Shown here piece after piece: positions 796 through 24,374 of a DNA stretch of 64,000 bases (position 1 is its first letter; each line of letters opens with the position of its first letter). The notes below the pieces were generated by a model. It searched no databases and was not told the origin of the DNA. It saw nothing but the letters and a program-made list of their open reading frames with translations. Both the position numbers and the translations under genes were made by a program. Origin of the DNA: Candidatus Omnitrophota bacterium (lineage in GTDB: Bacteria > Omnitrophota > Gorgyraeia > Gygaellales > Profunditerraquicolaceae); the NCBI GenBank assembly GCA_041651115.1, contig JBAZJY010000001.1, positions 5,165-69,164 of the forward strand, written 5' to 3'.

Positions 796-3700
796 ATGCA
801 CGCTAAGACAACCAATAAAATCGTATCGTTATTTTTATCTCTTATTTTTTTATTTTCCCAGACCGGCATAGCACAGGCAGCAGCAGAGTTAAATTTAGCT
901 GCTTACCTGAGCCCGCCAAGTTATTCCTCCGCCGATAAATTGCGGCTGCCCAGCCTGCGTTATTTTTCCTACGATAACCTCACAAATAATCTCAAGATCG
1001 TTTTGGACAAGGGCGATTTAACGCAAATGAGCCAGGCTGAAGTGCAGGATTCCGCGCAGCAGGCCATGGCCTATTTCCTGATCGGCGTCACGCTTCCCGA
1101 TGAATGCTTTTGGGTGAACTTGCGGCCGGATTCCCCCGAGAATATGATTGATGATTATCTTGTCCAGACAGACGTAGGTAAGATCATGCTTGAGGCTGAC
1201 GTAGAGCTCAAAAAAGACACTGCCCGCTTTACCTCTCCGCAGACACCCGAAGGAAAACTTTATTGGGATAAGTTATATCAGAAAGCCGGAGAGATATTCG
1301 GCAGCGAGAATATCACTATTCCTACGCTTACCCGTCCCTGGATCGTGCCGGGCGAAGTAATTGTCCGCGAAAGCGCTGACAGTGCCTATATTTATAAGGC
1401 CGGCTTAAAGGTAATGCTTGAACAGGACCGCTTAAAAAATTCAAGCGTATATAATTTTTCTGATCCCCGGATGAAAACCCTCAATGAATATTCATCCCAG
1501 CTTATCCGCGAGTTGATTATTCCTAAGCTTACCAAAGAAGTAAATACCGGCCGCAAATACGCTTCATTAAGGCAGGCTTATTATTCTCTGATCCTGGCGC
1601 GCTGGTTCAAGACAAGGTTTTACGGCAAGGGCGGCACTTATGCTTCAGCGATCAATAAAAAGAACCTTAATGGCCTGACTTCTAAAGACGCCTGGTCAAA
1701 GCTGGCCTATTTTAATGCCTATCAGAAATCTTTTAAGCAGGGTGAATACAACCTGCAGGTGCCGGTAGCCACTTTGGCCGGCCAGAGTATTAGAAGCTAT
1801 TTCAGCGGCGGCGTTAGTTTAGTAAATGCGGATTTAAGCTTTCCGCAAGGCACAATGACCGTAAATTCAAGTCCGATCATCGGGCTTTCCAGCCCGAATG
1901 ATTTTTTTGGGAAATTCAGCGATGATCCGTCATTTGTTTCTTTTAGGGGGAGCAATGCCGATCCTGCCATGCTGATCCCTGAATTGCAAAACTCCTCTCC
2001 CATACGCCTTGAGAAAGTAGATCCCGAAGAAGCAAAATCGTTTGGGAAAGAGATGAATGAAATTTTTGAAATTGATCAATCTATTGCCGGGGTCGCAAAG
2101 AACCTAAAAGCAACGCGCGAATATGAAAATGCAGCCGAATACATACAGCAGGAAGCGGCGATTAAGAAATTGCTTGAAACCGAGCGGTATAAGATCCGGG
2201 TTGTGCTTAGCTCTGATTACGGCTCTCCGGTGTCGGTTATGATCCCCGACGATCTCACCGTGAAGAAGGAAATCTATGAAAAATATATCGCCAAAATTTA
2301 TGCCGAAGGCCAGGCTTTGCGGAACGGGCGTTCGCAGCATCTGTATGTAGAAGCATACAATGCCTCCGGCAGGCGCTTGCCGAAAGAAGAAAAGGCAATA
2401 TCCGAGGCAATAGATGCCTATTTTAAGACGCTCGGTTTCCGGTTATATGGCAAGGCCAATGCAGGCAACCCCGTGATAGTTGAAAGAAAACCGGATAAAT
2501 TTACCCCTGAAGCTACTGTTGGCCTGGATAACTGGCTTGAAAGCGCTTATCACGATAAATTGGTAACAAAAAGGGAAGGCGCGGTAACGCTTGGCATAGA
2601 TATCGGCGGCCAGGGGATGAAGGCAAGGATACGCAGGAATGGAAAAGATGTAACTGAGGAAGTGCTCGCGGGAATGCCGGACACAGAAGAAGCGCGCTCA
2701 TCCGACAAGTCGCTCCTCTACCGTTATTCTTACCTTGGCCGGAGCGACAGCGGCTTATTGTTTAAAGAAAGATTGGTGGAATATGCCGGAGAATTAAAAG
2801 ATGCCGTGGAGAACAAATACGGTAAGGGAATTATCGGAGGCGTATTCATCAATATGCCCGGCGCTCCTGATTACAAAGAAGGCAGGATGGGCAGCATAGG
2901 TGGGCTTTCTGCTAATTTCAATGAGGATTATATGGCGCAGGGCATCAGCGAAGTTAACCGCTTTATTCCTGAATTGATCGGTTTATTTGATAACGCCGTT
3001 GTCGGTTTTGGCAATGATATGACCGGTTGGGCTTATTCGCTGCTTGCCGCAGCGAAGTCCGCGCTTACTAAAGAGGATGCGGAAAGATTAAAAAATACCT
3101 TAATCGTATTTGACGGCACAGGCATTGGCACGCTGTTGATCAAAAACGGGAGCGAAGTGACCGGCGCAAATGAATGCGGGCACCTTATAGCAAACGTCAA
3201 TGCGCAAGAGAAAGACTCGCGGGCCCCTGATTCGCCTTTTGGTTCTTTTGAGGATATGGGCGGAAGCGTGAGAGGGATATTGGCTATGGCTAGGGAGCTG
3301 GGCTTAACTGAAAAGCTTGTTGCCCTGGGGTTGGAAGAAAAGAATATCACCCCTAAACATATAGGGTTGGCTGCCACAGGCATAAACCCCGTAACTAATG
3401 AGCCCTGGTCGCTGATGTCTAACGGAGGCATAGAGATCCAGGGTATTGCGCAGCAGGTTTGGGATCGTATTGAGCAGGTTGAGGCAGCGCAGATAATTTT
3501 GTTATATAGGTTGACCGGGGAAACCAATGTTGTTTTTGGCGGCGGCACGGCAGCCGGAAAAACAGGCGAGCTGAGAGTGGCGCATCTGCGCAGATATATT
3601 GAGCAATATAGCCGGATGCTGGGGATTACGGATAAAATTGAAGTCATCCTGGCTGACGGAGAAATAAATGCTGCGGATGGCGCGGCATTAAAAGCAGAAC

Positions 3701-4437
3701 AGTTGTATAATCGATATGCCCAGGCTTCGTCGACTTCCAGTCCGCTGAGCGTTGAAGAGCTGGATAGGATAATGAAGCAGGAGCTCACCCTGCGCGGGTA
3801 TGATTTGAAGAATAACAATGGGCAGATACTGATAAGCCGGCAATATTTAGAGAGGGCTCCGGAGGCAAGCCTCCATCCCGTGGGACAAGATACGAGCGCG
3901 TTTGATGTCCTTCGCCGCGGCGATGGGGAGAAAATTACGTTTTTTATAGATTATAAGCCGGAAGCCATTACGGTCCGTGCCTGGGATGAAGAATTAAGGA
4001 AGCCGCTCGATTTGTTTGATATAAACATTAAAGCCGGAACAGTAGTTAGCGTGTTTTCTTCAAAGCCAACCAGTTCGCCGATGAAAGCTGAAGATGCGAC
4101 AAAAGGGGGCATTGACTTCCGTAGTATCCCGCTGACCATCCAGCCGATCGGCAATTTCGGCAGCATTGTCCTTCAGGCGCCGCAGGCCGCAGTGCTGGAG
4201 AATATTAATCCCGACGCGGAGATGAAACAGCTCGCCCGGATGGTACAAAGCGGCATGCTGCCGTCCGGCCAAAGAGTAAAAGAGCTGATCTATGCCTGCT
4301 ATTATAAAAATGAATTGTCCCAGATGCAGGGTGGCCTGGTCAGCTGTCTTACGGATATCTGCCGACTGCAGGAAGAACAGGGAGTCTTTGCCGAACCGGA
4401 ATTAAAAGAAAGTCTGGTATTATTAGAATTTATATAG
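796..4437 (+). CDS. Large secreted protein of unknown function (about 1213 aa from this start; the ORF opens at 778).
   Basis: Long uninterrupted ORF. An AGGAG lies 9 nt before the ATG at 796. N-terminal signal peptide KIVSLFLSLIFLFSQTGIAQA. I recognise no catalytic motif; there is a Gly-rich stretch VVFGGGTAAGKTGE. Confidence 0.8.
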   Translation: MHAKTTNKIVSLFLSLIFLFSQTGIAQAAAELNLAAYLSPPSYSSADKLRLPSLRYFSYDNLTNNLKIVLDKGDLTQMSQAEVQDSAQQAMAYFLIGVTLPDECFWVNLRPDSPENMIDDYLVQTDVGKIMLEADVELKKDTARFTSPQTPEGKLYWDKLYQKAGEIFGSENITIPTLTRPWIVPGEVIVRESADSAYIYKAGLKVMLEQDRLKNSSVYNFSDPRMKTLNEYSSQLIRELIIPKLTKEVNTGRKYASLRQAYYSLILARWFKTRFYGKGGTYASAINKKNLNGLTSKDAWSKLAYFNAYQKSFKQGEYNLQVPVATLAGQSIRSYFSGGVSLVNADLSFPQGTMTVNSSPIIGLSSPNDFFGKFSDDPSFVSFRGSNADPAMLIPELQNSSPIRLEKVDPEEAKSFGKEMNEIFEIDQSIAGVAKNLKATREYENAAEYIQQEAAIKKLLETERYKIRVVLSSDYGSPVSVMIPDDLTVKKEIYEKYIAKIYAEGQALRNGRSQHLYVEAYNASGRRLPKEEKAISEAIDAYFKTLGFRLYGKANAGNPVIVERKPDKFTPEATVGLDNWLESAYHDKLVTKREGAVTLGIDIGGQGMKARIRRNGKDVTEEVLAGMPDTEEARSSDKSLLYRYSYLGRSDSGLLFKERLVEYAGELKDAVENKYGKGIIGGVFINMPGAPDYKEGRMGSIGGLSANFNEDYMAQGISEVNRFIPELIGLFDNAVVGFGNDMTGWAYSLLAAAKSALTKEDAERLKNTLIVFDGTGIGTLLIKNGSEVTGANECGHLIANVNAQEKDSRAPDSPFGSFEDMGGSVRGILAMARELGLTEKLVALGLEEKNITPKHIGLAATGINPVTNEPWSLMSNGGIEIQGIAQQVWDRIEQVEAAQIILLYRLTGETNVVFGGGTAAGKTGELRVAHLRRYIEQYSRMLGITDKIEVILADGEINAADGAALKAEQLYNRYAQASSTSSPLSVEELDRIMKQELTLRGYDLKNNNGQILISRQYLERAPEASLHPVGQDTSAFDVLRRGDGEKITFFIDYKPEAITVRAWDEELRKPLDLFDINIKAGTVVSVFSSKPTSSPMKAEDATKGGIDFRSIPLTIQPIGNFGSIVLQAPQAAVLENINPDAEMKQLARMVQSGMLPSGQRVKELIYACYYKNELSQMQGGLVSCLTDICRLQEEQGVFAEPELKESLVLLEFI

Positions 4438-4524: not shown

Positions 4525-6795
4525 ATGACCGATCAAATCAGGTCAAGCAATGGTCTTTTGCGCCTCGCGTCATTTCCCGAATTAAACCCGAATCCCGTAG
4601 TTGAAATAGGCCTGGACGGTACGCTCTGCTATTCCAATCCTGCCGCACAAAAGAGGTTCCCTGATCTATGCGATTTAAAATTCAAGCATGCGTTCCTTTC
4701 CGGCATTAAACAGGAATTGCAGGCCGGCGTAAAAGACGGAAGGTTTTCTTTCAATCGCCAGGTCAATATCGGAGGCATCTGGTATGCCCAGAATATATTT
4801 TTCGTTGAGGAAACTAAAAACATCCGTATTTATGCTTATGATATAACGGTAAACAAGCAGGCGGAAGAGCGCTTAAAGGAATCTGAAGAAAAATACCGTA
4901 CCTTAATGGATGATGCCGGAGACGCAATATTGTTGGCAAATATTGAGGGGTACCTGGTAGAAGCCAATAAGAAAGCAGAGAAGCTTTTGGGTTATAAAAA
5001 AAGCGATTTATTGGGTATGCACTTTACCATGCTGCATCCCCAAGAGGAGATCAGGCGGGCTGTTCCCGCTTTTCAGAAAATCTACCGTAACGGTTCGGGA
5101 AACCTGCTTAACAGCCTGTTCAAACAAAAAGACGGAAAATTGGTCCCGGCAGATATAACCGGCAGCGTGATAAGCTACAGAGGCAAAAAAATAATGCAGG
5201 TGGTTATCCGCGATATCTCCGACCGCAAACGCGCGGAAGAGGCCAGGGAAAAGGCGCGTGAGGATTTGGAGATCCGCGTGCAAAAGCGCACTTCGGAACT
5301 GGCAAACGCGAACGTGATGCTGCAGGAGGAGGTTACCCAGCGTAAAAAAGCGGAAGAGATGCTGCGGCAGAGCGAAGAGCGCTACCACAGGATCATTTCT
5401 ACGATTACCGACTATATCTATACGGTGCGCATGGAAAAGGACGGCAGCGTAGCCACTATTCATAGTCCGTCGTGCGTGGCAGTGACCGGCTATACGGTAG
5501 AAGAATTTCAGTACGATCCGTTCTTATGGCTTAACATGGTGCATAAGGACGATAAAGAGCTGGTTTTTCAATGGTCAAAGCATATCCTTGATGGCCATGG
5601 GGTTGATCCTTTGGAACACCGCATAAAACGAAAAGACGGCCAGATCCGTTGGATCAGGAATACGGCTGTTTTTCATTTTGACGATAACGGCAAACTTGCT
5701 TCTTATGATGGGGTAGTACAGGATATTACTGACGCAAAGATCGCCGAAGATGAAAGGGCGCACGCCAATGCCTTGAAAACGATCATTGAAAATAGCCCGG
5801 ATGTGTTGCTGGTTACCGATATTTACGGCAGGATCATCCAATTCAACAAAGTACTGGTGGAAAACCTTGGATTTAATGAAGAGATCATTGGCCAGCCGCT
5901 GGCCGATCTTATTGCGGAGCCTGACCGCAAGAAGATTGCTCAAGGCATAAAAAAATGCTTAAACGAGGGCAGGGTGGGCGGCATAGAAGTAAAATGCTTG
6001 ACCGGGAATAGGGGGGAATTTTTTGCTTTAGTCAATATTTCCCTGCTTCAAGACGCGGGAGGTTTTCCCGCCGGCCTGATTGCCGTTATCACGGACATCA
6101 CCGAGCGGAAAAAAATGGAAGAAGCTAAAGACGAAAGCATTAATATAATTTCCCATGAATTGCGCAGCCCACTTGCCGCCGTAAAAGAAGGGGTTTTGAT
6201 CATCCTTGACGGTTTGGTCGGGGATGTCGGCGCCTTGCAGCAGGATGTCCTGGTTACCGTAAAAAACAATGTTGACCGGCTGGTATATTTTGTTAACAGC
6301 ATCCTTGACTATCAAAGGTTGAATTATCCGAAGATCGCGCTCGACATAACGGAAGCGGATATCAATAACGCGGCAATTGAGGCAAAAAACGGGATGAGTA
6401 TTCTGGCAAGAAGCAAAAATATTGAGTTTTTAATGGAGCTGGATAAAGGATTGCCTCCGGTAAAATTTGATTACAGCATGATCATACAGGTGCTCACAAA
6501 CCTGCTTAATAACGCGGTTAAATTTACCGATAAGGGTTGCATAAAGATCAAAACCGGCAGGCGCGGCGATACGATCGGCGTATGCGTGGAAGATACGGGC
6601 ATCGGGATCAAGCAAGAAGAGATCTCCGGCTTATTTAATATTTTCTGCCAGGCTTCTAACGGCAAAAAGGCGCGCAGCGGCAGCGGGCTGGGCCTGGCAA
6701 TATGCAAAAAAATCATTGAGCACCACGGCGGAGAGATCTGGGTGGAATCCGAATACGGTAAAGGCAGTAAATTCTATTTTACCCTGCCGGCATGA
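4525..6795 (+). CDS. Multi-PAS sensor histidine kinase (HisKA + HATPase_c), cytoplasmic.
   Basis: AAGGAG RBS. Several PAS-like blocks and coiled-coil linkers, H-box ISHELRSPLAAV, N/G boxes, and the C-terminal GSGLGLAICKKIIEHHGGEIWVESEYGKGSKFYFTLP. Confidence 0.9.
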   Translation: MTDQIRSSNGLLRLASFPELNPNPVVEIGLDGTLCYSNPAAQKRFPDLCDLKFKHAFLSGIKQELQAGVKDGRFSFNRQVNIGGIWYAQNIFFVEETKNIRIYAYDITVNKQAEERLKESEEKYRTLMDDAGDAILLANIEGYLVEANKKAEKLLGYKKSDLLGMHFTMLHPQEEIRRAVPAFQKIYRNGSGNLLNSLFKQKDGKLVPADITGSVISYRGKKIMQVVIRDISDRKRAEEAREKAREDLEIRVQKRTSELANANVMLQEEVTQRKKAEEMLRQSEERYHRIISTITDYIYTVRMEKDGSVATIHSPSCVAVTGYTVEEFQYDPFLWLNMVHKDDKELVFQWSKHILDGHGVDPLEHRIKRKDGQIRWIRNTAVFHFDDNGKLASYDGVVQDITDAKIAEDERAHANALKTIIENSPDVLLVTDIYGRIIQFNKVLVENLGFNEEIIGQPLADLIAEPDRKKIAQGIKKCLNEGRVGGIEVKCLTGNRGEFFALVNISLLQDAGGFPAGLIAVITDITERKKMEEAKDESINIISHELRSPLAAVKEGVLIILDGLVGDVGALQQDVLVTVKNNVDRLVYFVNSILDYQRLNYPKIALDITEADINNAAIEAKNGMSILARSKNIEFLMELDKGLPPVKFDYSMIIQVLTNLLNNAVKFTDKGCIKIKTGRRGDTIGVCVEDTGIGIKQEEISGLFNIFCQASNGKKARSGSGLGLAICKKIIEHHGGEIWVESEYGKGSKFYFTLPA

Positions 6796-6844
6796 TAAAT
6801 TTCTAATATAATTATTTATTTTACTGCATATTCTGGTATAATCC

Positions 6845-8095
6845 TTGCTGATGAAAAAGAGAAGGGTTGTGATAACCGCAGTAGGCGTTGTATCTTCCAT
6901 CGGCATCGGCAAGGATGATTTCTGGAAAGCCAACCTTGCAGGCAAGTCCGGCGTAAGCGCAATCACCCATTTTGATCCTTCCCTACTTGGCTCAAAAGTC
7001 TCCGGCCAAATAAGAAATTTTAATCCTGAAGATTATATGGATCGCGACACGGCAAAAAAGGCCGATAGGTTTGTGCACTTAGGCCTTGCCGCGTCAAAGC
7101 TGGCCTTTGATGACTGGAAGGGAGATCTTGACAAAGAGGATCGCGTGAGGATCGGCGTGATCTACGGGTCAGGGCTAGGCGGCGTTTTATTCCATGAAGA
7201 GCAGATGATCAGGGCTTATGATAAAGGCAGCCATAGGCTGCATCCTTTATGCGTGCCGCGGGTCAGCCCCAATGCCGTGGCTTCGCAGATCGCGATCTAT
7301 TTTAAATTATTAGGGCCGAATATGGTAATTTCCAATGCCTGCGCCTCCGGAACAAATGGCATTGGCGAAGCATACAGAAAAATTCAGAGCGGAGACGCGG
7401 ATATGGTGGTTACCGGAGGGGCAGAGGCGCCGCTTACGGAGTTTACTTTCGGGGCGTATGACGCGATGCGCGCGCTTTCAAAGCACAACGCAGAGCCGGA
7501 AAAAGCCAGCCGGCCGTTTGATGCCCAACGCGACGGTTTTGTCCTGGGAGAAGGCGCGGCAACTCTGGTCCTGGAAGACTTGGAGCATGCGCAAAAAAGA
7601 GGCAGCCATATTTACGCCGAGATCACGGGTTATTTTTCAAATTCCGGGGCTTATCATATGGCAATCCCCGAGCCGACGGCAAGCGATATCAGCCGGGCCA
7701 TGGCCGGGGCAATAAAAGACGCGGGCCTGACAATAAAGGACATTGACTACATCAATGCCCACGGCACATCCACAACGTTAAACGATAAAGTCGAGACAAA
7801 GGGGATAAAGGATGTTTTCGGCGAAACAGCCCGGAAGATCCCGATTTCTTCCACCAAATCCATGGTCGGCCATTCCATCGGCGCTGCCGGAGCGATTGAA
7901 GCAGTAGCCTGTTGCCTGGCAATAGAGGACCAGATCGCTCCCCCGACGATCAACTATGAGAATCCCGATCCCGAATGTGATTTGGATTATGTCCCTTGCC
8001 AGCCCCGGCAGGTAAAGATCAAAAATATCCTTTCTAATTCTTTTGGCTTTGGCTCAAACAACGCCTGTTTAATATTCAGTAAGTTTAAAGATTAA
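6845..8095 (+). CDS. fabF: 3-oxoacyl-ACP synthase II (KAS II).
   Basis: Collinear with E. coli FabF. Active-site motifs NACASG (Cys), NAHGTST (His) and GHSIGAAG are present. Confidence 0.93.
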   Translation: MLMKKRRVVITAVGVVSSIGIGKDDFWKANLAGKSGVSAITHFDPSLLGSKVSGQIRNFNPEDYMDRDTAKKADRFVHLGLAASKLAFDDWKGDLDKEDRVRIGVIYGSGLGGVLFHEEQMIRAYDKGSHRLHPLCVPRVSPNAVASQIAIYFKLLGPNMVISNACASGTNGIGEAYRKIQSGDADMVVTGGAEAPLTEFTFGAYDAMRALSKHNAEPEKASRPFDAQRDGFVLGEGAATLVLEDLEHAQKRGSHIYAEITGYFSNSGAYHMAIPEPTASDISRAMAGAIKDAGLTIKDIDYINAHGTSTTLNDKVETKGIKDVFGETARKIPISSTKSMVGHSIGAAGAIEAVACCLAIEDQIAPPTINYENPDPECDLDYVPCQPRQVKIKNILSNSFGFGSNNACLIFSKFKD

Positions 8096-21354: not shown

Positions 21355-22332
21355 ATGTTCTTCCTGAACTTACGCATGTGGTTTCTGGTCGCGGTGCTCT
21401 TTAGCATAGTTTACGCGGTCATTGTTATGGCCGGCACGTACCTGGGCATCGGCAATTTCTATTTTTATCTTGGCGTATCGCTGGCAATGATGCTTATCCA
21501 GTATTTTATCGGCCCGAAGATCGTGGAATGGTCAATGCGCGTGCGCTACATCAAAAAAGAAGAGCATCCGGAATTATTCCGCATGGTCCAGGATCTGTCC
21601 CGGCGCGCAAATATCCCCATGCCCAGGATCGGAGTAGCGCAGATCGCCCTTCCGAACGCTTTCGCGTTTGGAAGAAGCATCCGCGACGGCAGGGTGTGCG
21701 TTACCGAAGGCATACTGCGGCTGTTGAATGAAGAAGAACTTAGGGCGGTGCTCGGGCATGAATTGACCCATCTAAAAAACCGCGATGTCCTGACGATTAC
21801 CGTCCTTTCGGTGATCCCGATGATCCTATACCGCGTTGCCTGGCATTTTCTTTTTTATGGCCGCAGGCGCGATGATCGCGGTGGTAATACCGTATTGATC
21901 GGCTTGGCGGCGTTCATTTTTTATTTCATCACTAATCTGCTCGTGCTTTATGCTTCGCGGATCAGGGAATATTTTGCCGATCGCGGTTCTGTAGCTTTAG
22001 GCAATAAGCCCCAGGCTTTGGCATCTAGTCTCTACAAGCTCGTTTACGGGGCTGCGCGCATGGATAAAGAATCCCTGCGGGAGTCGGAAGGGCTAAAGGC
22101 ATTTTTCGTCAATGACCCTTCGCGGGCAATGAAAGAGATCAGGGACCTGCGGCAGCTAGACATTGACAAGAGCGGCACGATTGATACCGCGGAGCTGGAA
22201 ACCTTAAGGAACAAAGCCGTAAAATTGGGCGCAGGGGACAGGATAATGGAATTGCTCAGTACGCATCCCAATATGTTAAAGCGGATCAAGCGGCTTTCCG
22301 AATATAGGAGCGGGCAGGGTCAAGAAATGTAA
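21355..22332 (+). CDS. htpX: M48-family zinc metalloprotease, HtpX-like.
   Basis: Multiple TM helices, HELTHLKNRD (HExxH), downstream E for the third ligand, and C-terminal NMLKRIKRL. Confidence 0.85.
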   Translation: MFFLNLRMWFLVAVLFSIVYAVIVMAGTYLGIGNFYFYLGVSLAMMLIQYFIGPKIVEWSMRVRYIKKEEHPELFRMVQDLSRRANIPMPRIGVAQIALPNAFAFGRSIRDGRVCVTEGILRLLNEEELRAVLGHELTHLKNRDVLTITVLSVIPMILYRVAWHFLFYGRRRDDRGGNTVLIGLAAFIFYFITNLLVLYASRIREYFADRGSVALGNKPQALASSLYKLVYGAARMDKESLRESEGLKAFFVNDPSRAMKEIRDLRQLDIDKSGTIDTAELETLRNKAVKLGAGDRIMELLSTHPNMLKRIKRLSEYRSGQGQEM

Positions 22333-22364
22333 GTCTCTGTTTTTCAATGAGTTATATTCCAGCC

Positions 22365-22393
22365 TTGACAAAGTCCATATCTTGGTGTATACT
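22365..22393 (+). promoter_or_regulatory. Sigma70-type promoter: TTGACA, 17-nt spacer, TATACT.
   Basis: Consensus -35 at 22365-22370 and -10 at 22388-22393. Confidence 0.6.
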
Positions 22394-22407
22394 TAATACA
22401 CTCATAT

Positions 22408-22500
22408 TCCGAAAAGGCAAACCTACTGAAAGGTAGGGACCCCGCCAGTTACAAGCGCGGTTGGTGGGTCCCTCGAAGCCCATAGTATAAGGTGGCTGGC
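22408..22500 (+). ncRNA. Candidate c-di-GMP-I (GEMM-like) riboswitch aptamer in the 5' leader of the HD-GYP gene.
   Basis: AAAGGCAAACC-UACU-GAAA-GGUAG-GGAC closely matches the GEMM-I 5' half (GGCAAACC, GAAA-capped P1 hairpin, GGGAC). A second hairpin follows, GGGACCCCGCC...GGUGGGUCCC. The conserved ACGCAAAGCC segment is absent. Confidence 0.4.
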
Positions 22501-22604
22501 TTTGAGGGAGCAAAGCTACGGATCTAAAGAAAAGAGGAAAATCTTTTGATCGCCGGGCTACCGAAGACAAATCTCTAGTTGATTGAACCGGACTTAACCG
22601 GATA

Positions 22605-22656
22605 AAACCGGAAGGCCCGGTTTTTACTTTAGCGGCCCTAAAGCAGCCGCTAAAGT
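22605..22656 (+). terminator. Leader terminator/expression platform: hairpin aaaccgg-aaggc-ccggttt plus a T run, then a second hairpin ctttagcggc/gccgctaaag.
   Basis: 7-bp GC stem followed by TTTTT at 22620-22625. A perfect 10-bp inverted repeat lies at 22627-22655. Both sit upstream of the gene starting at 22719. Confidence 0.55.
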
Positions 22657-22718
22657 ATTTCGCTGGACATAATTTACGTTAGGCTGGTGCTCAATTTTTA
22701 CAACAAGAGGATGGCAAC

Positions 22719-24374
22719 GTGGTCGCAGGAAAAATCAACTCTCTGGACATCATCAAGGGCATAGGCGCGGGGCTCTGCCTCCTGGATAAGAACCTGCGCA
22801 TTGTTTGGGTCAATAAATGCCAGGCAGAATGGTTTGGCGAGCTTGATGATATCCGCGGCAAGCACTGCTATAAGTTATTTGAACACCGTAATCATCCCTG
22901 CCGGGGCTGCCCGGCCTTAAAGGTTTTTAAGGATGGAAAAGTGCATAAAGCCGTAAGGATCGGCAAAAAGATCGACGGGACCAGCCAACACGCGCAATTG
23001 ACTGTCAGCCCGATCAAAGATAACCGTAATCGCGTAGAATACGCGCTTGAGGTCATACAGGATATCAGCGAGCAGGTCGAACGGGAAAGAAAGAGCAACC
23101 GGATGACGCGTAAATTACAGCGCATCCAGCACCGCTTGTCCGGGGCAAACCGCAGGCTGCATAACAGCATCTTGCGCCTCAAGGAGATCACCAGGGACGA
23201 GCTGCAGCATAATCACCTCCTGCATAAAAAATACCTGCAGAGTAAAGACAGACTGGATACCGTAAAGAAAGAGCTGCAGGATATTTTTAAAGTTAACCGC
23301 ACGATTTCCGCTTCAGCCGACGCCGAAAAGACCTTTTCCATGATCACGCGTTCAATCTGCGAGCTGATGAATACGGATTGCTGCGTGCTGCGCATTATTG
23401 ATGAAGAAAAAAAAGCGCTGACCGCGGCTGCCAGTTACGGCATACACAACGGCCTCAAAAGAAATCTCTTGGACGTCAAACTCGGAGACGGGATAAGCGG
23501 CAGGGCGGCGTTGGCGCGCAAGCCCGTAGTGATCAATGACCTGGGCAGGAAATCCGGGGTAAAATATCGCGACAAGAACGCGCGCGCTAAATACCGGGAA
23601 TTGGCGCAAAGCTTAGGCTTGCAGTCAATGATTTCCGTGCCGGTGATCTTTGACGGAAAAATGCTCGGCGTGATCTCAACCTATTCGCGCCGGAACCGCT
23701 GTTTTGAAGATGACGAAGTCAGGGTTTTGAGCATCTTCGCTTCGCAGATCGCCATCGCCATGCATGAATCAAAGCATTTTGAAGAGATCCATCAGAATTA
23801 TTTCAATACCATACATGCGCTGGTGCGCGCCATTGAAGCGCGCGACCCTTATACGCGCGGCCACACCGAAAGGGTAACAAAATACGCGGTTGAATTCGGC
23901 CGCAGCCTTAAATTGCCGGAATCCCAGATCGAGATCCTGCGCTATGCCAGCGAAGTGCACGACGTGGGAAAGATCAGCATCCCGGATTTTATCCTGAACA
24001 AACCCGGTAAGCTTACTCCTTCGGAAAGGGCAATGATCGAGCTGCATCCGGTAAAGGGCGCGGAAATGCTTGAGCCGTTGGAATTCCTTAACCCGGCAAT
24101 ACCGATCGTGCGCCACCATCATGAGCGCTACGACGGCACCGGCTATCCGGATGGATTGGAAAAAGACGATATCCCGCTTTTATCGCGCATCCTTGCCTGC
24201 GCAGATTCTTTTGACGCGATGACTTCCGAACGCCCGTACCGCAGGAGAAAGCTCAATATTGAGCAGGCGATCATGGAAATCAAGAATAACTTCGGCTCGC
24301 AATTTGACCCACGCATTGCCCAGCGTTTTATCAGGACGCTGCGCGCTCACCCCGTTTTCAAAGCCCTTAATTAA
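22719..24374 (+). CDS. PAS/GAF-domain HD-GYP c-di-GMP phosphodiesterase.
   Basis: GTG start with AAGAGG RBS. Coiled coil, GAF-like region, HD domain (...HDVGKI...) and the HHERYDGTGYPDGL (HD-GYP) motif. Confidence 0.85.
   Translation: MVAGKINSLDIIKGIGAGLCLLDKNLRIVWVNKCQAEWFGELDDIRGKHCYKLFEHRNHPCRGCPALKVFKDGKVHKAVRIGKKIDGTSQHAQLTVSPIKDNRNRVEYALEVIQDISEQVERERKSNRMTRKLQRIQHRLSGANRRLHNSILRLKEITRDELQHNHLLHKKYLQSKDRLDTVKKELQDIFKVNRTISASADAEKTFSMITRSICELMNTDCCVLRIIDEEKKALTAAASYGIHNGLKRNLLDVKLGDGISGRAALARKPVVINDLGRKSGVKYRDKNARAKYRELAQSLGLQSMISVPVIFDGKMLGVISTYSRRNRCFEDDEVRVLSIFASQIAIAMHESKHFEEIHQNYFNTIHALVRAIEARDPYTRGHTERVTKYAVEFGRSLKLPESQIEILRYASEVHDVGKISIPDFILNKPGKLTPSERAMIELHPVKGAEMLEPLEFLNPAIPIVRHHHERYDGTGYPDGLEKDDIPLLSRILACADSFDAMTSERPYRRRKLNIEQAIMEIKNNFGSQFDPRIAQRFIRTLRAHPVFKALN

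Follow-up and report, generated by a model that had tools for sequence, protein, structure and literature searches.

The window analysed here is a stretch of 64,000 nucleotides (nt) from a Candidatus Omnitrophota bacterium (contig JBAZJY010000001.1, assembly GCA_041651115.1). It includes a gene for a PAS-GAF-HD-GYP phosphodiesterase of cyclic di-GMP (c-di-GMP), and the leader of this gene, which is the subject of this report, very probably carries a c-di-GMP-I (GEMM-I) riboswitch whose aptamer is interrupted by two extra hairpins. The gene as called in public assemblies yields the same protein, an identical gene and leader are found on contigs of two public assemblies, and the named homologues of the protein are from Candidatus Omnitrophota. 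In relatives the locus is syntenic and consists of an M48 peptidase gene, the leader, the PAS-GAF-HD-GYP gene and an Asn/Asp-tRNA synthetase gene. A first-pass annotation of the window, made from the sequence alone, had proposed a TTGACA-17-TATACT promoter, a leader of about 300 nt and an HD-GYP protein containing HHERYDGTGYP, and all three stand. The promoter matches the consensus at 11/12 positions, and its TTGACAAA and TATAYT are unvaried across four orthologous leaders (alignment A1). Transcription is expected to start near 22400, and from about there to the GTG at 22719 the leader is ~320 nt long. The HHERYDGTGYP motif lies in a protein with the architecture PAS-GAF-HD-GYP. The 3′ end of the aptamer is 152 nt upstream of the gene, a 5′ regulatory position like that of the GEMM-I class.

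When the whole window was compared with Rfam, the single match above a gathering score was to RF01051 (c-di-GMP-I), at 22406–22565 (39.7 bits versus a gathering score of 35, E = 2.9e-4 for the 64 kb window against all Rfam). This above-threshold cmsearch result bears out the GEMM-I-like c-di-GMP riboswitch that the first-pass annotation had placed upstream of a GAF/HD-GYP phosphodiesterase gene. The alignment spans all 87 model positions, and 80 nt occupy a place where the model expects about 10. A covariance model made for insert-type aptamers, R1, returned 70.0 bits for 22408–22566, with the window element among its 32 training sequences. As each model gave a single match and no second GGCAAAC core is found inside the insert, the window has one aptamer.

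Aptamer positions are given here in the numbering of Vc2 of Vibrio cholerae, the structural reference. G20, A47 and C92 are said to contact the ligand in the Vc2 crystal structures that Smith and Kulshina and their respective colleagues described in 2009. All three are present in the Rfam alignments (22416, 22512 and, for the C92 equivalent, 22561), and the core nucleotides are all intact. G21-C46 and C22-G45 are helix pairs in Vc2, and C44 pairs tertiarily with the bulged G83 (PMC11705072). The nucleotide that differs in variants sensing cyclic AMP-GMP (cGAMP) directly contacts a ligand base (PMC9481103). These GEMM-Ib (c-AMP-GMP, 3′3′-cGAMP) riboswitches of Geobacter and relatives have the same fold and belong to the same Rfam clan, but their pocket nucleotide at position 20 is changed (A instead of G; PMC9481103), whereas the window has G at 22416. 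The GEMM-Ib identity raised in the first-pass annotation was therefore rejected. RF03167 (the c-di-GMP-I-GGC variant) scored 36.1 bits, below its gathering score of 59. RF01786 (c-di-GMP-II), the other model named for checking, gave no match at E ≤ 10 in 22300–22760, and a c-di-GMP-II identity was rejected. A permissive cmscan (E ≤ 10) of the insert and leader returned only snoRNA, miRNA and Collinsella-1 fragments, which we regard as noise, and a second known RNA family in either was likewise rejected. We conclude that the element is very probably a class I c-di-GMP riboswitch (GEMM-I, RF01051) that controls the PAS-GAF-HD-GYP gene and has a structural-variant aptamer with two inserted hairpins.

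The component parts of a canonical first hairpin are present (Table 1), namely the GC/GC 2 base pair (bp) stem (22417–22418 with 22510–22511), the AAA/GAC internal loop, the 6 bp stem and the GNRA tetraloop. The AAA linker between the two aptamer hairpins is also present, in GC-AAA-GC at 22510–22516, and A47 (22512) is what we take to be the intercalating adenine of this conserved GCAAAGC junction. In the second hairpin, CUAA...UUGA aligns with the tetraloop receptor of the model, and on sequence alone a bulged G at 22552 is the equivalent of G83, the partner of C44 at 22440. The P1 closing helix is weak, its 3′ strand pairing with UUC at 22407–22409 as read from the sequence. What is not found is an uninterrupted first hairpin leading into a three-helix junction, as a 69 nt insertion lies exactly between C44 (22440) and G45 (22510). 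It is made up of two hairpins, here named H2 and H3. H2 begins right after C44, while H3 adjoins both H2 and G45, and this flush two-hairpin split was equalled by none of the shuffled versions of the insert (p = 0/200 shuffles). In the Rfam alignment, G45 and C46 complete the 2 bp helix with C22 and G21 across the insert.

The first-pass annotation had read AAAGGCAAACC-UACU-GAAA-GGUA-GGGAC at 22413–22440 correctly, and comparison with 50 related elements places its GGGAC in the conserved first hairpin. It had reported the conserved ACGCAAAGCC junction as missing, which is wrong: the junction is present as GGGA-GCAAAGCUACGG at 22505–22521, displaced 69 nt downstream because two hairpins have been inserted into the first aptamer hairpin. 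The boundaries of its second hairpin, GGGACCCCGCC...GGUGGGUCCC, were also incorrect, as the same comparison gives H2 as CCCGCCAGUU/GGUUGGUGGG and shows that UCCC opens the 12 bp H3. The recurrent, covarying nature of this two-hairpin insertion had not been caught.

On the predicted pairings, the insert turns the first hairpin into a four-way junction, with the pocket nucleotides, the 2 bp helix and the sequences of the C44/G83 contact and of the tetraloop with its receptor all kept. As there are no linkers, the four helices would fit a stacked four-way junction in which H2 stacked on H3 forms the second arm and the canonical first hairpin remains continuous on the 5′ strand. The C44–G45 backbone segment would be a natural exit point, since C44 departs from the helix in any case to pair with G83, and H2 and H3 hanging off it there would leave the ligand pocket intact.

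Table 1. Features of the PAS-GAF-HD-GYP leader and gene (window coordinates; aptamer positions in Vc2 numbering)
Feature	Position (strand)	Basis or details
Sigma-70-type promoter	22365..22393 (+)	-35 TTGACA 22365-22370, 17-nt spacer, -10 TATACT 22388-22393
Complete c-di-GMP-I (GEMM-I) aptamer including insertion	22406..22566 (+)	RF01051 match; R1 match 22408-22566
5′ pocket half and first hairpin	22416..22440 (+)	Sequence, Rfam alignment, Vc2 pairs from PMC11705072
G20	22416	
G21, C22	22417-22418	
AAA of internal loop	22419-22421	
6-bp stem CCUACU/GGUAGG with GAAA tetraloop	22422-22427 with 22432-22437; tetraloop 22428-22431	
GAC of internal loop (C44 = 22440)	22438-22440	
Inserted hairpin H2, CCCGCCAGUU / loop ACAAGCGC / GGUUGGUGGG	22441..22468 (+)	10 bp including G-U pairs; fold
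Inserted hairpin H3, UCCCUCGAAGCC (22469-22480) with GGCUUUGAGGGA (22498-22509)	22469..22509 (+)	12-bp stem; fold, inverted repeat
G45-C46 (22510-22511), A47 (22512)	22510..22513 (+)	Rfam alignment; junction GCAAAGC
Second aptamer hairpin (receptor), AGCU-A-CGGAUC ... GAU-CG-CCG-GGCU	22514..22559 (+)	Rfam alignment; helix 5 covariation
A-C-CGAAG: C92 equivalent (22561) and P1 3′ strand (22562-22566)	22560..22566 (+)	Rfam alignments
Intrinsic terminator	22585..22625 (+)	Hairpin 22585-22623, loop AUAAAA 22602-22607, U run 22621-22625; folds, direct repeats
Perfect 12-bp hairpin (22625-22636 with 22646-22657)	22625..22657 (+)	Inside ~67-nt stretch 22627-22693
Ribosome-binding site AAGAGGA and GTG start codon	22705-22711, 22719-22721 (+)	Sequence, ORF (open reading frame) list
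Regulated gene, 551-aa (amino acid) PAS-GAF-HD-GYP c-di-GMP phosphodiesterase	22719..24374 (+)	Contains HHERYDGTGYP; has syntenic Omnitrophota orthologues

When one genome per GTDB species was scanned with the pattern AGGCAAACC-N10-16-GGGRC-N55-85-GCAAAGCNACGG, 39 loci were returned, where ~0.5 chance matches would be expected by our own arithmetic. True inserts were found at 18 of the 39, in 13 metagenome-assembled genomes (MAGs) that contain up to three each; 12 of the MAGs are named Omnitrophota or Omnitrophica and one 'uncultured Planctomycetia'. One locus, in Novosphingobium, is a chance match, and the loci with nested aptamers (see below), which have a different arrangement, were excluded from the insert family. 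A scan of metagenomes that permitted inserts of 26–86 nt added a further 40 loci with inserts of 34–79 nt. After duplicates were removed, 51 non-redundant insert-type aptamers remained, nearly all from Candidatus Omnitrophota, with inserts of 34–83 nt. Each of the 51 inserts can be divided into two hairpins that leave no base unpaired at the C44|H2, H2|H3 or H3|G45 boundaries, the shorter flush stem having a median length of 5 bp. For 39 of them at most 1/200 shuffles of the same insert was equally good (p ≤ 0.005). The insert sequences of the 51 aptamers are otherwise unrelated.

An initial MAFFT alignment of unmodified short-insert aptamers (A2) misaligned H2 and H3, and was replaced by A3 and then by A4. 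For A3, 32 members were aligned without gaps after the H2, H3 and distal second-hairpin loops had been cut back to 4 nt. In A3 all six modelled pairs of H2 and all six of H3 change on both sides, 94% (H2) and 98% (H3) of cells are paired, and the covariation score is 0.66, where shuffles reach 0.21 and slid partners no more than 0.14. In A4, where untrimmed sequences were aligned to R1, H2 is 95% and H3 98% paired and every pair covaries. Helix 5 of the second aptamer hairpin also covaries across the insert-type family. R1 found three aptamers that the patterns had missed (L022:7738-7863, L054:12526-12688 and L038:3992-4118), and in the first of these C22-G45 has changed to U-A across the insert.

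Inserts of paralogues within one genome are related and differ by compensatory changes, both among L008, L013 and L029, which have in common an H3 built on CCUGGC with a 3′ strand of GCCAGG or GCCGGG, and between the two L038 copies. The insert is thus inherited with the riboswitch and selection acts on its pairing; its two flush hairpins are maintained by compensatory change, and it occurs almost only in Omnitrophota. The paralogous insert-type aptamers of L038, with their related inserts, are at 3992-4118 (-) and 6212-6338 (-) in one Omnitrophota MAG. The 3992-4118 copy reads GAGCAAAUC so that its position 20 is A, as is typical of cGAMP-sensing GEMM-Ib. L058 (+) has a mixed tandem, a standard GEMM-I at 6578-6661 followed 55 nt later in the same leader by an insert-type aptamer at 6716-6871.

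A GEMM-I aptamer is present in the leader of the PAS-GAF-HD-GYP gene at 8/9 syntenic loci. The aptamer is a standard one in L003, whose protein is 80% identical to that of the window, and in L005, L088, L089, L090 and L091 (51–60%). Only two of the nine leaders, those of the window and of L004 (76%), have the insert. The L004 insert is 82 nt long, interrupts the same bond as in the window and has the H3 stretch UCGAAGCC in common with it. In L087 (59% identity), no aptamer was detected in the 380 nt leader of the first gene; a standard GEMM-I at 2902-2990 (+) precedes a paralogous GAF-HD-GYP gene that follows the PAS-GAF-HD-GYP gene. Window and L003 proteins are 80% identical, window and L004 76%, and L003 and L004 73%, with outgroups near 58–60%, and from these pairwise identities the distribution suggests a single gain of the insert followed by its clean loss in L003. 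Loss in L003 by simple slippage between direct repeats was rejected, as the junction sequences do not fit. Since close orthologues do without the insert, it is probably a dispensable peripheral expansion that at most tunes the folding or stability of the marginal 2 bp helix under the pocket.

c-di-GMP-I aptamers ahead of HD-GYP genes are well known. The genes downstream of insert-type aptamers encode N-methyl pilins, a T2SSE/MshEN ATPase, a GAF-HD-GYP protein, a TPS-domain protein, RHS proteins, Ig-repeat surface proteins and a C25 peptidase with dockerin, and are the usual GEMM regulon. Insert-bearing RNA therefore probably still senses c-di-GMP. At the gathering score, Rfam detected 17/38 insert-type aptamers, all at 35–50 bits and several with truncated spans; R1, trained on 32 of these sequences, scored them at 33–82 bits. 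A candidate Na+ riboswitch of another family, nhaA-I (RF03057), was seen at L036 5395-5452 (+) in an Omnitrophica WOR_2 MAG (47.2 bits versus a gathering score of 37).

Downstream of the aptamer, the first-pass annotation had recognized a terminator, aaaccgg-aaggc-ccggttt. A terminator is present, although the stem quoted is just the upper part of a longer and imperfect hairpin at about 22585–22623, in which three 10 nt repeats of GAnnnAACCGGA (22581–22612, with a 10 nt period) pair with GGCCCGGUUU. L003 and L004 have the same terminator architecture with compensatory changes. In more distant orthologues, the terminator 5′ arm copies the 3′ half of the aptamer almost exactly (for example 1408-1431 versus 1438-1461 in L005, and GAUUGCCGGGCUGCCGAAG versus GAUCGCCGAGUUGCCGAAG in L090). 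The repeat arm of the window is a degenerate version of this copy (CCGGACUUAACCGGAU versus CCGGGCUACCGAAG), and the three GAnnnAACCGGA repeats are thus the terminator arms plus the degenerate copy and not a separate repeat element. A relay of 4 bp CCGG hairpins acting as the switch was considered and dropped, as the three AACCGG repeats are two arms of one long hairpin. In L005, and also in L088, L089, L090 and L091, the copy lies between the aptamer and the start codon (e.g. UCUAUUGACCGCCGGGCUGCCAAAC versus UCUAUUGACUGCCGAGCUGCCGAAG).

The arrangement suggests strand exchange between two alternative 3′ halves of the aptamer. Transcription from the promoter at 22365–22393 would produce the leader, and the riboswitch would control the PAS-GAF-HD-GYP gene through the conserved intrinsic terminator. 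Without ligand, the copy would take the place of the true 3′ half in the second hairpin, preventing termination; with ligand bound, the aptamer would be locked and the terminator would form. The balance is about even for such an OFF switch, towards which we lean and in which c-di-GMP would repress its own phosphodiesterase gene. An ON switch is possible if the aptamer, completed by the copy, binds ligand and blocks the terminator, or if the terminator 3′ arm pairs instead with GCCGGGCU (22552–22559), as it does in the minimum-energy fold.

Beyond the terminator, the hairpin that the first-pass annotation had called a perfect 10 bp one is real and is 12 bp long. It lies in the stretch 22627–22693, which is not in the orthologous leaders L003 and L004, has TTTTT on both flanks and is unique in the window. 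On its 5′ side is the U run of the terminator and on its 3′ side the conserved TTTTTACAACAAGAGG ribosome-binding region. The stretch probably does not belong to the switch, and could be either a small insertion or an additional stem acting on read-through.

Other explanations for the insert have to be weighed against a dispensable expansion of a working aptamer. It could change how the aptamer acts, by providing a second ligand or protein site, altering specificity or changing capture kinetics, and so define a functionally distinct subclass; for example, it might clamp the 2 bp G21-C46/C22-G45 helix, a helix that needs ligand to form in Vc2. The strictly flush geometry of 51/51 inserts, a C-G at the first H3 pair in 28/32 sequences and at the third H2 pair in 26/32, and a structure kept over deep divergence would all be in keeping with this. 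Imino signals of G20, G21, G42 and G45 in Vc2 are seen only in the holo state (PMC11705072), and a helix stacked on G45 could matter there. However, neither loop sequences nor stem lengths are constrained (34–83 nt), contrary to a specific additional binding site, ordinary GEMM-I has the same gene contexts, close orthologues of the same gene occur with or without the insert, and the insert has no match in any Rfam family at E ≤ 10. We consider an added function of this kind distinctly unlikely. Its elaboration, that a module stacked on C22-G45 pre-forms the pocket floor or recruits a partner, giving an Omnitrophota GEMM-I subclass with different affinity, kinetics or specificity that includes A20 copies (L038:3992-4118), seems unlikely.

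An aptamer broken by the insert, that is, a decaying pseudo-riboswitch that leaves the gene under its promoter and terminator alone, might be suspected from an Rfam score barely over threshold (39.7 versus 35) and from the closeness of the insert to the intercalating A47, two nucleotides away. However, all core nucleotides are intact, and the architecture has been kept in 51 aptamers by compensatory changes, whereas decayed copies would not retain flush hairpins. The low score is accounted for by the insertion penalty, as the insert-form model (its 32 training sequences including the window) gives 70 bits. Decay is accordingly very improbable. It is harder still to credit that a small mobile or repetitive palindromic element, like a repetitive extragenic palindrome (REP) or a miniature inverted-repeat transposable element (MITE), landed in the aptamer. 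The insert is made of hairpins and is patchily present among orthologues, but both of its halves are unique in the 64 kb window even with 3 mismatches, and a repeat or mobile-element origin was rejected on that evidence. The inserts of different aptamers are without common sequence yet always occupy the same phosphodiester bond, and those of paralogues and orthologues are related and have diverged by compensatory change, which points to inheritance with the riboswitch.

Several points weigh against our interpretation of a conserved four-way junction on a switching aptamer. With no linker bases, the two extra helices have to leave the core at the very interface where C44 reaches G83, a tertiary pair that might not survive. 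As AGGCAAACC, GGGRC and GCAAAGCNACGG were fixed in the search patterns, their conservation in the 51 aptamers is partly by construction, and only the three extra aptamers found with the model are free of this bias. The H2 and H3 boundaries in A3 were selected for maximal pairing, with shuffles as the control, and A4 leans towards the model to which it was aligned. For the switch, minimum-energy folds of growing transcripts do not separate ON from OFF, and both partners of the terminator 3′ arm abut the U run.

Peripheral extra stems are familiar from other riboswitches, such as P3a of TPP riboswitches and the peripheral extensions of cobalamin riboswitches. Like these modular or optional stems, the insert is lineage restricted, absent in close relatives, conserved in pairing and free in sequence. 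Unlike them, it is a linkerless hairpin pair placed within the best conserved helix, at a distance of two nucleotides from the ligand-intercalating adenine, and not an extension of a distal loop. The term 'modular stems' was defined in the original GEMM description in the general sense of optional extra stems (PMC1950547). There, the first hairpin consists of 2 bp and 6 bp stems around a conserved 3 nt internal loop and has a strongly conserved structure, the linker between the two hairpins is 'virtually always AAA' (PMC1950547), and a GAAA tetraloop is accompanied by a tetraloop receptor in the second hairpin. The window element shares with c-di-GMP-I (Vc2) the AAAGGCAAACC core, the GNRA-capped first hairpin with its AAA/GAC loop, the GCAAAGC junction and the receptor hairpin with a bulged G. 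It also shares the location in a 5′ leader, an intrinsic terminator overlapping or mimicking the 3′ part of the second hairpin, as for GEMM (PMC1950547), and control of genes for c-di-GMP turnover, pili and surface proteins. It differs in that the first hairpin is broken between C44 and G45 by two flush hairpins, giving the predicted four-way junction.

Tandem c-di-GMP-I doublets and triplets (PMC9481103, PMC4759541) resemble the window leader in having several helices and repeated GEMM-like sequence, and GGGAC ... GGGA-GCAAAGC could be mistaken for two partial aptamers; however, the window leader has only one aptamer. A separate arrangement was seen at the remaining genome-scan loci, in MAGs of Bipolaricaulota, 'uncultured Thermotogae' and Neomarinimicrobiota, where the second hairpin of one GEMM-I has another, complete GEMM-I aptamer nested in it (L010, - strand, about 1690-1880; L012, L014, L015, L016, L018, L019, L021, L023, L026, L028, L031, L032, L033, L035, L039, L041, L042, L043 and L046). 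The outer P1 encloses both aptamers and covaries (GCAUCUA/UAGAUGC versus GCACCUA/UAGGUGC, the latter in L014, L035 and L043), its 5′ strand is complementary, in addition, to the GGAGGUGCUU ribosome-binding region downstream, and Rfam returns two adjacent matches, of which the outer one is forced. The word 'nested' is not used in the tandem-riboswitch review (PMC9481103).

Neither the original GEMM description (PMC1950547) nor the tandem-riboswitch review (PMC9481103) mentions an insertion in the first hairpin, and in the open-access literature we found no description of a two-hairpin GEMM-I variant or of Omnitrophota riboswitches. We therefore class the window element as ordinary in function and, in architecture, as a previously undescribed, lineage-restricted structural variant of c-di-GMP-I that lacks an uninterrupted first hairpin. 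It appears that GEMM-I can accommodate two inserted helices in its most conserved helix, two nucleotides away from the adenine that stacks on the ligand, and that compensatory evolution has maintained them in 51 or more aptamers of a poorly studied, uncultivated phylum. Close orthologues that differ in having or lacking the insert offer natural matched pairs with which to study how a peripheral four-way junction affects the folding, affinity and kinetics of a well-understood aptamer. As Rfam finds fewer than half of the insert-type aptamers, the c-di-GMP regulons of Omnitrophota are under-annotated, which an insert-aware model such as R1 would remedy.

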